Source: Escherichia coli 042
GTDB taxonomy: Bacteria > Pseudomonadota > Gammaproteobacteria > Enterobacterales > Enterobacteriaceae
DNA: 64,000 bases
Strand: one strand, 5' to 3'
NCBI RefSeq assembly: GCF_000027125.1
Contig: NC_017626.1
Shown here: positions 29,443-34,118 of the stretch, piece by piece
How the letters are laid out: each line of letters opens with the position of its first letter
How positions within the stretch are numbered: position 1 is the stretch's first letter
Translations under genes and position numbers: made by a program
The notes under the pieces: generated by a model
Told to the model about the DNA's origin: nothing
Databases searched by the model: none
The model's input: only the letters and a program-made list of their open reading frames with translations

Positions 29443-30441
<999 letters not shown>

Positions 30442-30771
30442 TTTCTTGCGTTATTTCCGGCACCTTTTATGTAGAGAAGGTGCCGGAATATATTCTCTTT
30501 TGTTGCTTATTTGTATCCGCTGCACAATATTTTTATCCCTCATATTTATAGGGTAAATTACTTGTAAAGTAGTGTCTAATTACCCGCCTCGCAAACTCCA
30601 GTTTTCAAATATCTATTTCAGGTCAAAAGATTGAATTATTCACTGGAGACGATTCGTAAATTCGCTGGATTTTTGACTAAAGTTTCTTTAGGATTTGTCT
30701 CATCGTATGATTAATTACACCAATCGTTCAACGTCTTGCTGATAAGTGATGGCGATTATATGAGGTTAGCA

Positions 30772-30900
30772 ATGCCTTCTGGAAATCAGGAACCCCGCCG
30801 GGACCCTGAATTAAAACGCAAAGCCTGGCTGGCGGTATTTCTTGGTTCTGCACTTTTCTGGGTGGTTGTCGCACTGCTGATTTGGAAAGTGTGGGGATAA
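30772..30900 (+). CDS. ymiA: Small membrane protein YmiA (42 aa)
   Basis: MPSGNQEPRRDPELKRKAWLAVFLGSALFWVVVALLIWKVWG; single TM helix. Confidence 0.75.
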   Translation: MPSGNQEPRRDPELKRKAWLAVFLGSALFWVVVALLIWKVWG

Positions 30901-30902
30901 CT

Positions 30903-31070
30903 ATGGTCGGTCAGGAGCAACTGGAGTCGTCACCATTATGTCAGCATAGTGACAATGAACCAGAAACGAAACGGGAATGTTCCGTCGTTATTCCAGACGA
31001 CTGGCAACTAACAACGCAGCAGCAAGCCTTTATAGAACTGTTTGGTGAAGATGATCAGCCGAAACAATAA
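30903..31070 (+). CDS. yciX: Small protein YciX (55 aa)
   Basis: ATG 2 nt after ymiA stop; MVGQEQLESSPLCQHSDNEPETKRE.. Confidence 0.75.
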   Translation: MVGQEQLESSPLCQHSDNEPETKRECSVVIPDDWQLTTQQQAFIELFGEDDQPKQ

Positions 31071-31442
31071 TTATCATCATTCTTATTACCCATTTTTAAT
31101 CAATTAAAGGGCTTTTAATACACCGCAGCAATAACAGGTTGAGTTATCTCAACACAAAGTAATAACCGTTAAGGGTGTAGCCTATGATCAACACAAATAT
31201 GAAATATTGGTCCTGGATGGGCGCATTTTCTCTGTCGATGCTCTTCTGGGCCGAACTCCTCTGGATCATTACTCACTGATCCCTGACCCCGCTGCGGCGG
31301 GGTTTTCATTTGCTTTGCCACAAGGTTTCTCCTCTTTTATCAATTTGGGTTGTTATCAAATCGTTACGCGATGTTTGTGTTATCTTTAATATTCACCCTG
31401 AAGAGAATCAGGGCTTCGCAACCCTGTCATTAAGGAGGAGCT

Positions 31443-34118
31443 ATGTCGTCAACCCTACGAGAAGCCAGTAAGGACACGTTGCAGGCCAAAGATAAAACTT
31501 ACCACTACTACAGCCTGCCGCTTGCTGCCAAATCACTGGGCGATATCACCCGTCTGCCTAAGTCACTCAAAGTTTTGCTCGAAAACCTGCTGCGCTGGCA
31601 GGATGGTAACTCGGTTACCGAAGAGGATATCCACGCGCTGGTGGGATGGCTGAAAAATGCTCATGCTGTCCGTGAAATTGCCTACCGCCCGGCAAGGGTG
31701 TTGATGCAGGACTTTACCGGCGTACCTGCCGTTGTTGATCTGGCGGCAATGCGCGAAGCGGTTAAACGCCTCGGCGGCGATACTGCAAAGGTTAACCCGC
31801 TCTCACCGGTCGACCTGGTCATTGACCACTCGGTGACCGTCGATCGTTTTGGTGATGATGAGGCATTTGAAGAAAACGTGCGCCTGGAAATGGAGCGCAA
31901 CCACGAACGTTATGTGTTCCTGAAATGGGGAAAGCAGGCGTTCAGTCGTTTTAGCGTCGTGCCGCCAGGCACAGGCATTTGCCATCAGGTTAACCTCGAA
32001 TATCTCGGCAAAGCAGTGTGGAGCGAATTGCAGGACGGTGAATGGATTGCTTATCCGGATACACTCGTTGGTACTGACTCGCACACCACCATGATCAACG
32101 GCCTTGGCGTGCTGGGGTGGGGCGTTGGTGGGATCGAAGCCGAAGCCGCAATGTTAGGCCAGCCGGTTTCCATGCTTATCCCGGACGTAGTGGGCTTTAA
32201 ACTCACCGGAAAATTACGTGAAGGTATTACCGCCACAGACCTGGTTCTCACCGTTACCCAAATGCTGCGCAAACATGGCGTGGTGGGGAAATTCGTCGAA
32301 TTTTATGGTGATGGGCTGGATTCACTACCGCTGGCGGATCGCGCCACCATTGCCAATATGTCGCCAGAATATGGTGCCACCTGTGGCTTCTTCCCAATCG
32401 ATGCTGTCACCCTCGATTACATGCGTTTAAGCGGGCGCAGTGAAGATCAGGTTGAGTTGGTCGAAATATATGCCAAAGCGCAGGGCATGTGGCGTAACCC
32501 GGGCGATGAACCGATTTTTACCAGTACGTTAGAACTGGATATGAATGACGTTGAAGCGAGCCTGGCAGGGCCAAAACGCCCACAGGATCGCGTTGCACTG
32601 CCCGATGTACCAAAAGCATTTGCCGCCAGTAACGAACTGGAAGTGAATGCCACGCATAAAGATCGCCAGCCGGTCGATTATGTTATGAACGGACATCAGT
32701 ATCAGTTACCTGATGGCGCGGTGGTCATTGCTGCGATAACGTCGTGCACCAACACCTCTAACCCAAGTGTGCTGATGGCCGCAGGTTTGCTGGCGAAAAA
32801 AGCTGTAACTCTGGGCCTCAAGCGGCAACCGTGGGTCAAAGCGTCGCTGGCACCAGGCTCGAAAGTCGTTTCTGATTATCTGGCAAAAGCGAAACTGACA
32901 CCGTATCTCGATGAACTGGGATTTAACCTTGTGGGATACGGTTGTACCACCTGTATTGGTAACTCTGGTCCATTGCCCGATCCTATCGAAACGGCAATCA
33001 AAAAAGGCGATTTAACCGTCGGTGCGGTGCTGTCCGGCAACCGTAACTTTGAAGGCCGTATCCATCCGCTGGTTAAAACTAACTGGCTGGCCTCGCCGCC
33101 GCTGGTGGTTGCCTATGCGCTGGCGGGAAATATGAATATTAACCTCGCTTCTGAGCCTATTGGTCACGATCGTAAAGGCGACCCGGTATATCTGAAAGAT
33201 ATCTGGCCCTCGGCACAAGAAATTGCCCGTGCGGTAGAACAAGTCTCCACAGAAATGTTCCGCAAAGAGTACGCAGAAGTTTTTGAAGGCACAGCAGAGT
33301 GGAAGGAAATTAACGTCGCACGATCCGATACCTACGGTTGGCAGGAAGATTCAACCTATATTCGCTTATCGCCTTTCTTTGATGAAATGCAGGCAACACC
33401 AGCACCTGTGGAAGATATTCACGGTGCGCGGATCCTCGCAATGCTGGGGGATTCAGTCACCACTGACCATATCTCTCCGGCGGGCAGTATTAAGCCCGAC
33501 AGCCCGGCGGGTCGATATCTACAAGGTCGGGGTGTTGAGCGCAAAGACTTTAACTCCTACGGTTCGCGGCGTGGTAACCATGAAGTGATGATGCGCGGCA
33601 CCTTCGCCAATATTCGCATCCGTAATGAAATGGTGCCTGGCGTTGAAGGGGGGATGACGCGGCATTTACCTGACAGCGAGGTCATCTCTATTTATGATGC
33701 CGCGATGCGCTATAAGCAGGAGCAAACGCCGCTGGCGGTGATTGCCGGGAAAGAGTATGGATCAGGCTCCAGCCGTGACTGGGCGGCAAAAGGTCCGCGT
33801 CTGCTTGGTATTCGTGTTGTGATTGCCGAATCGTTTGAACGAATTCACCGCTCGAATTTAATTGGCATGGGCATCCTGCCGCTGGAATTTCCGCAAGGCG
33901 TGACGCGTAAAACGTTAGAGCTAACCGGGGAAGAGAAGATTGATATTGTCGATCTGCAAAATCTACAACCCGGCGCGACGGTTCCGGTGACGTTTACGCG
34001 CGCGGATGGTAGCCAGGAAGTCGTACCCTGCCGTTGTCGTATCGACACCGCGACGGAGTTGACCTACTACCAGAACGACGGCATTTTGCATTATGTCATT
34101 CGTAATATGTTGAAGTAA
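31443..34118 (+). CDS. acnA: Aconitate hydratase A
   Basis: 891 aa; [35 protein letters not shown]. Confidence 0.97.

Follow-up and report, generated by a model that had tools for sequence, protein, structure and literature searches.

The reading frame at positions 31184-31279 on the plus strand of the window (the 64,000-nt stretch of Escherichia coli 042 DNA that was analysed) is ymiC, a genuine protein-coding gene that has already been catalogued. It runs from an ATG at 31184 to a TGA at 31277-31279, i.e. 31 codons plus the stop, as taken both from the list of open reading frames and from direct reading of the sequence, and its 31-aa product is MINTNMKYWSWMGAFSLSMLFWAELLWIITH. The ATG, the length and the extent of the frame are exactly as the first-pass annotation had described them, and the suspicion voiced there that the product might be a small protein already on record was well founded, the sequence being the same as that of WP_001310756.1 and as that given in PMC6001520. 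An exact-sequence look-up of the 31-aa peptide returns Protein YmiC (UniProt YMIC_ECOLI), and between that entry and the copy in the window there is no difference in the 31-aa sequence, in the position between yciX and acnA, or in strand, start or stop. RefSeq likewise has a CDS at the identical position, for the small inner-membrane protein YmiC. With identity and anatomy taken jointly (the gene, its operon, its translation start, the single helix of its product and the terminator that follows it), the reading set out here is very probably correct.

Against Pfam PF23694, YmiC-like (cut-off 27), the peptide reaches 87.5 bits, with residues 1-31 of its 31 covered, and against the NCBIfam equivalog NF041484 (cut-off 42) it reaches 66.3 bits. 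Megablast of 30700-31500 located the region in 5421 of 5426 complete E. coli genomes, with ymiC at a median of 1 place per genome, and among the matches listed the features beneath it were always ymiA, yciX, 'ymiC: small membrane protein YmiC' and acnA. In E. coli 118UI, to which the surrounding 801 nt are 100% identical, and in one K-12 strain, the ymiC CDS (WP_001310756.1) falls at exactly the coordinates of the present frame; the 801 nt are 98.3% identical to K-12. In an exhaustive HMMER search of 1.8 billion representative proteins only 10 relatives emerged at E <= 0.001, which marks the family out as small and narrow; sequence similarity outside the YmiC family was not found among those proteins, nor did a PDB sequence search with YmiC yield relatives.

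The published record is substantial. VanOrsdel 2018 (PMC6001520) placed ymiC between yciX and acnA at K-12 1335572-1335667, with the same 31-aa sequence, and detected YmiC by immunoblot of a chromosomal SPA-tag; the authors note that ymiC had also come up positive in a tetracycline ribosome-profiling screen. The preprint PMC11429745, in which initiation was profiled by Ribo-RET, has YmiC as one of 17 small proteins induced by Mg2+ limitation. In its reporter fusions, DNA from upstream of the ymiA-yciX-ymiC operon was active in a PhoQ-dependent manner and DNA from directly before ymiC was active to a negligible extent; GFP-YmiC was seen at the cell periphery, and under low Mg2+ neither deletion nor overexpression of ymiC affected growth or morphology. 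The first-pass annotation had proposed ribosome profiling, epitope tagging and frame conservation as checks, and would have counted the absence of a footprint at the start codon against the frame. The start signal is in fact present in both the Ribo-RET and the tetracycline data, and the tagging had already been done, with a positive outcome in the chromosomal SPA-tag immunoblot of VanOrsdel 2018. The comparative results given below complete the set, the frame being kept in 16 enterobacterial loci with a synonymous-site pattern that supports coding.

With frames this short, chance has to be weighed, and the possibility that ymiC is a biologically meaningless open frame can draw on its length. 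The list of open reading frames holds 69 of at least 20 aa in 4 kb, so such lengths are common; the yciX-acnA spacer contains several further ORFs of 24-60 aa in frames other than that of ymiC, and the +2 frame is open across 66 codons in E. coli. By itself, the length of the ymiC ORF does not exceed chance. What lifts the frame above chance is the comparative data, namely that over a 26-codon core it is stop-free in all 16 sequences compared and has a pN/pS of 0.27. Its annotation, its detection by experiment, the family models and the purifying selection specific to this frame over seven genera together mean that the chance reading is already refuted, and its probability is as good as nil.

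The comparison set consisted of 16 loci obtained by a pattern scan, with one genome per species, from seven genera (Escherichia, Citrobacter, Lelliottia, Enterobacter, Kosakonia, Dryocola and Yokenella) together with an Enterobacteriaceae MAG. The scan pattern was [MH]KYWSW[ML], from which a Salmonella-type KYWSWI would escape. An exact record look-up with the Salmonella-like peptide translated from the Rfam consensus gave no match, and Salmonella is therefore represented solely via that consensus. One scanned locus, L003, is a 454-bp contig of coverage 1.3 (NZ_JAHZMP010000227.1) in an assembly of Terrisporobacter mayombei, a member of the Clostridia. It carries ymiC, with a product identical to the E. 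coli protein, and has almost certainly entered that assembly as an E. coli contaminant.

Over the 26-codon core, from a conserved internal Met to the stop, there are no indels and the stop position is the same in all sequences; alone among the six frames, that of ymiC has no internal stop across this core in 16 of 16 sequences. Third codon positions are the most variable (21 of 26, against 16 first and 13 second positions). Pooled pN/pS is 0.27 in the ymiC frame (codon bootstrap 95% interval 0.16-0.38, with no replicate at or above 1), and the Jukes-Cantor dN/dS is ~0.12. Four other frames give a pN/pS of ~1.0-2.1, and the antisense frame that has its third positions in common with ymiC gives 0.46. 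The synonymous-site pattern thus strongly supports ymiC as coding. K7, Y8, W9, S10, W11, F15, S18 and W22 are invariant in the compared loci, and position 24 is Glu or Gln in their alignment. As to synteny, the gene order cysB-ymiA-(yciX)-ymiC-acnA is kept at all complete loci, and ymiC lies between yciX and acnA on the same strand in the window and in the 14 orthologous loci that have downstream flank. An aberrant copy occurs in Escherichia sp. MOD1-EC7003 (L005, 2501-2673), with a GTG start and the changes E24K and L25R within the helix; after its stop the sequence no longer follows that of the terminator, and 77 nt on the contig ends. This ymiC may be a decaying copy or lie at a rearrangement breakpoint.

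In composition, the description of the product as Trp-rich holds (4 Trp in 31 residues, or 12.9%), as does that of a single predicted transmembrane segment. By hydropathy the hydrophobic stretch covers roughly residues 9-30, the most hydrophobic 19-residue windows spanning residues 11-30 at a Kyte-Doolittle value of ~1.5, and AlphaFold2 gives one helix over residues 3-30 with a mean pLDDT of 86.7.

As to where translation starts, the Shine-Dalgarno-like AAGGG at 31171-31175 (plus strand) has an anti-SD duplex energy of -5.1 kcal/mol. The first-pass annotation had pointed to this element and its placement upstream of the ATG stands; the 7-nt spacing given there does not, as 8 nt are counted from the last G to the A of the ATG. 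Between five and eight residues precede the conserved internal Met, which is Met6 in the present copy (ATG 31199), and both their number and their sequence vary, so that ATG 31199 has to be considered as a possible true start. In an anti-SD duplex scan, however, ~14 of 16 orthologous loci have an SD-like element before the upstream ATG, in nearly every genus at a distance of 4-9 nt and with sequences such as GGGTG, GAGG or GGT; before the internal Met codon such an element is absent in every genus. This distribution across genera argues against ATG 31199. The Ribo-RET window of PMC11429745, 4-20 nt from the annotated start, agrees with the upstream ATG. In Escherichia whittamii (L007, 2444-2520) a 16-nt deletion takes out the ymiC SD and leaves the ORF and the terminator intact. 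Loss of the SD with retention of the ORF counts against the best explanation offered here.

Upstream on the plus strand, directly adjoining as the first-pass annotation had it, are ymiA (30760-30900), the first gene of the operon, and yciX (30903-31070), its middle gene. The product of ymiA is a 46-aa putative membrane protein, with a RefSeq entry and matches to NCBIfam NF000536 and Pfam PF22868, and ymiA is syntenic at all loci compared. With yciX, 55 aa and also in RefSeq, the case is different: it has no Pfam or NCBIfam match, its identity between genera is 32-48% whereas ymiA and ymiC are mostly more conserved, and at the Enterobacteriaceae MAG locus no match to it was found. From such sequence comparisons, yciX looks less secure as a conserved protein than ymiA and ymiC do.

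Operon membership of ymiA-yciX-ymiC and its PhoQP dependence come from PMC11429745. A sigma-70 scan of 30400-31500 found no plus-strand promoter, leaving an independent ymiC promoter unsupported, in agreement with the negligible reporter activity in PMC11429745. A degenerate PhoP-box scan gave 182 matches where ~129 would be expected, and upstream of ymiA only sites with 3 mismatches. Further upstream, 14 nt past the cysB stop, is a strong 14-bp hairpin with a T-rich tail (30455-30488), likely, as judged by its form and place, the cysB terminator that parts cysB from the ymiA operon.

An intrinsic terminator is predicted on the plus strand at 31285-31313, beginning 5 nt past the ymiC stop. It consists of a hairpin, GACCCCGC-TGCG-GCGGGGTT (31285-31304), that folds at -16.4 kcal/mol by terminator scan and folding, followed by a U-rich tail, TTCATTTGC. 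Across 11 sequences from 7 genera, 91% of its cells are paired, and 3 pairs are changed on both sides, including one that is split between U-A in 5 and C-G in 4. In three Citrobacter loci (L008, L010 and L011, ~2597-2930) palindromic, REP-like insertions, e.g. GCCTGATGACGCTACGCTTATCAGGC, lengthen the spacer from the ymiC stop to acnA by 40-170 nt relative to E. coli. In the first of them the terminator hairpin motif is found ~55 nt further downstream; in the other two no terminator was located in the 70 nt read. The Term-seq data obtained in LB, in the available part of the PMC7815308 supplements, list no plus-strand 3′ end between K-12 1333823 and 1335835, a result that low ymiC expression in LB may explain. 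To the extent of that part of the source, use of the predicted terminator in vivo is undocumented in LB.

The terminator is also the 3′ boundary of a match, at 31111-31313 on the plus strand, to the Rfam family RF02079 (STnc180), which takes in the region 5′ of ymiC, its CDS and the terminator. On this match rests the alternative that the region is a non-coding regulatory sRNA in which the ORF is incidental. At 202.7 bits, with a gathering threshold of 50, the score is high, and the model matches every orthologous locus scanned (14 of 14). STnc180 was a candidate sRNA of Salmonella, with cDNAs recovered in the Hfq study of Sittka 2008; it has its locus and its ~200-nt span in common with ymiC, and Rfam types it 'Gene; sRNA', where the ymiC segment is protein-coding mRNA. 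Sittka 2008, however, did not see a discrete sRNA: the probe revealed species of 500-2000 nt, and these were called likely processed mRNA. The consensus of RF02079, when translated, contains an intact 31-codon YmiC-like ORF, which makes the family look mis-typed.

Substitution pattern and structure also tell against this alternative. Variation is at third positions, with the pN/pS already given, the fold of the region is not more stable than that of shuffled sequence (z = -1.24), and of the modelled helices the terminator alone has covariation support. A stem of the Rfam and minimum-free-energy structure that would sequester the SD (31119-31124 with 31174-31179) was considered and rejected, as only 58% of its cells are paired, with no compensatory change. 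Since the terminator is the sole supported helix, the substitutions are protein-like and the consensus carries the ORF, STnc180 is best taken as the ymiC segment of an mRNA and not as a non-coding RNA. With the protein itself detected experimentally (PMC6001520), the sRNA reading is already largely refuted and very improbable.

Within the yciX-ymiC spacer there is a further conserved element, on the plus strand at 31113-31153, comprising the non-coding block TTTTAATACACCGCAGCAATAA (31113-31134) and the hairpin GTTGAG-TTAT-CTCAAC (31138-31153). The block is near-invariant across seven genera. At the equivalent place in other genera the hairpin has a genus-specific sequence with the palindrome kept, e.g. 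arms GGGG/CCCC in Lelliottia, AATTGAGTA/CTCAGTT in Kosakonia and CTGATT/AATCAG in Dryocola; by pair counting on the MAFFT register it is 64% paired. No match to a sigma-70 promoter was found in 31113-31153, and the element may be a site of processing or of binding. Slightly upstream, at 31063-31090 and overlapping the yciX stop, are Fur-box-like overlapping hexamer repeats that, on either strand, agree with GATAATGATAATCATTATC in 14 of 19 positions. These make up one of the three best-scoring clusters of the 64-kb window and are kept in Escherichia and Citrobacter only.

Downstream, acnA (31443-34118) begins 163 nt after ymiC, and the relation between the two merits care. The proximal acnA promoter region on the plus strand (31372-31393) includes the PhoP box TGTTTGTGTTATCTTTA, reported upstream of acnA in Salmonella and E. 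coli (PMC10294627) and located here at 31372-31388, and the transcription start of P2. PMC2760140, citing Cunningham 1997, gives the latter as -50, i.e. 31393 in the window, and an acnA template in PMC5737558 with a U-then-C start is consistent with it. The P2 start and the PhoP box are downstream of the ymiC terminator, so ymiC is outside the main acnA leader. The earlier description of the frame as part of the acnA leader region is accordingly right in part only, as it does not hold for the leader of the main P2 transcript. A distal acnA promoter, P1, of the sigma-S type and ~407 nt upstream, was reportedly described by Cunningham, Gruer and Guest in 1997. Only for transcripts from that distal promoter, or for read-through from the ymiA promoter, would ymiC be in an acnA leader.

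Such transcripts are where another alternative would apply, in which ymiC is a cis-acting uORF or leader peptide whose translation controls read-through past 31285-31313 into acnA, the peptide being incidental. Adams 2021 (PMC7815308) counts ymiC-acnA as a uORF candidate, one of those with a 3′ end no more than 200 nt away, the arrangement of ymiC, terminator and acnA is kept in all genera, and both the ymiA operon and acnA are reported to be PhoP-activated (PMC11429745, PMC10294627). The distance from stop codon to hairpin cuts both ways: at 4-14 nt among the loci it is short, as such control would have it, and it is inconstant. Against incidental status for the peptide are the strong purifying selection on its amino acids along the whole helix, and the fact that YmiC accumulates and inserts in the membrane; neither would be expected if the leader acted purely in cis. 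The main acnA promoter lies 3′ of the terminator, no conserved antiterminator pairing was found, and the stem that would pair with the SD is unsupported.

As for the 3′ end itself, the PMC7815308 supplements put the one paired with ymiC at K-12 1335835, in acnA codon 2 and not at the ymiC hairpin, and score it as not Rho-dependent. It may reflect structure, CsrA binding or processing in the acnA leader, unrelated to ymiC. A stem-loop, CAGGGCTTCGCAACCCTG, is present at 31409-31426, just 5′ of the acnA Shine-Dalgarno, and the CsrA-acnA paper makes no mention of ymiC. Overall, the cis-acting alternative is unlikely, and it gains no support from the measurements made here. Decidedly unlikely is a composite in which the 31113-31134 block, the hairpin, ymiC and the terminator form a post-transcriptional gate, additional to the role of YmiC in the membrane: processing, or binding of a protein or sRNA, at the 5′ block would set ymiC translation, and ribosomes reaching the ymiC stop would set PhoP- or sigma-S-driven read-through into acnA. 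If true, the stress aconitase would thereby be tied to Mg2+ or stationary-phase signals.

The preferred reading, that of ymiC as a gene selected for its protein, leads to the following course of events. As the last cistron of the ymiA-yciX-ymiC transcription unit situated between cysB and acnA, ymiC is transcribed at a higher level on Mg2+ limitation, through the action of PhoQ/PhoP at the promoter upstream of ymiA. Translation begins at ATG 31184 by means of the AAGGG Shine-Dalgarno, and transcription would stop mostly at the conserved terminator 5 nt beyond the ymiC stop, before the main acnA promoter. The product forms one transmembrane helix in the inner membrane, its N-terminus, with Lys7, being probably cytoplasmic. 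By analogy with MgrB, MgtS and PmrR, small membrane proteins likewise induced at low Mg2+, it would there bind a larger membrane protein helix-to-helix and modulate it. This last, partner-modulation part is tentative, with a chance a little short of even; since neither deletion nor overexpression has given a phenotype, the modulator step is put forward conditionally. Conservation suggests an invariant face of K7-Y8-W9-S10-W11, F15, S18 and W22, with the buried polar E/Q24, as the candidate contact residues.

A short, hydrophobic peptide with a single TM helix also has the look of a type I toxin, and YmiC as a membrane-damaging peptide of that type is a further alternative. A Shigella preprint (bioRxiv 10.1101/2025.06.29.662172) puts ymiC with hokD and ortT as 'TA module components', though the evidence for this is not given. 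Overexpression of YmiC barely affects growth, unlike that of DinQ in PMC11429745, and the opposite strand has neither an annotated nor an Rfam-found antisense or overlapping sRNA gene. The site is a conserved, syntenic chromosomal one, neither mobile nor duplicated, ymiC having the single place per genome noted above. A toxin role is extremely improbable.

Already in RefSeq, UniProt, Pfam and NCBIfam, and previously tagged, profiled and localised, ymiC is not new, and in one respect its recovery bears on method, a first-stage reader having been able to find a genuine 31-codon gene from raw sequence. Three points are mildly new. The STnc180 'sRNA' evolves as protein-coding ymiC mRNA; ymiC is upstream of the main acnA promoter and outside its leader; and a near-invariant untranslated block with a hairpin is present at 31113-31153. 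For experiments, the comparative data nominate K7-W11, F15, S18, W22 and E/Q24, and the conserved untranslated element upstream.

Two known systems offer instructive parallels. The first, mdtU-mdtJI, a uORF termination element of Adams 2021, resembles ymiC-acnA in that a small ORF precedes a larger gene and an RNA 3′ end is close by. The resemblance does not go far: with ymiC the 3′ end is inside acnA and not Rho-dependent, the main acnA promoter intervenes, and the peptide is a stable, conserved membrane protein. The second is the group comprising MgrB, MgtS and PmrR, whose partners are known (in PMC11429745, MgrB is a regulator of PhoQ and PmrR inhibits LpxT), whereas YmiC is without a known partner or phenotype. 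No sequence likeness to them was found either, yet YmiC resembles them in length (at most 50 aa), in its one TM helix, in its inner-membrane location and in its induction through PhoQ/PhoP at low Mg2+.
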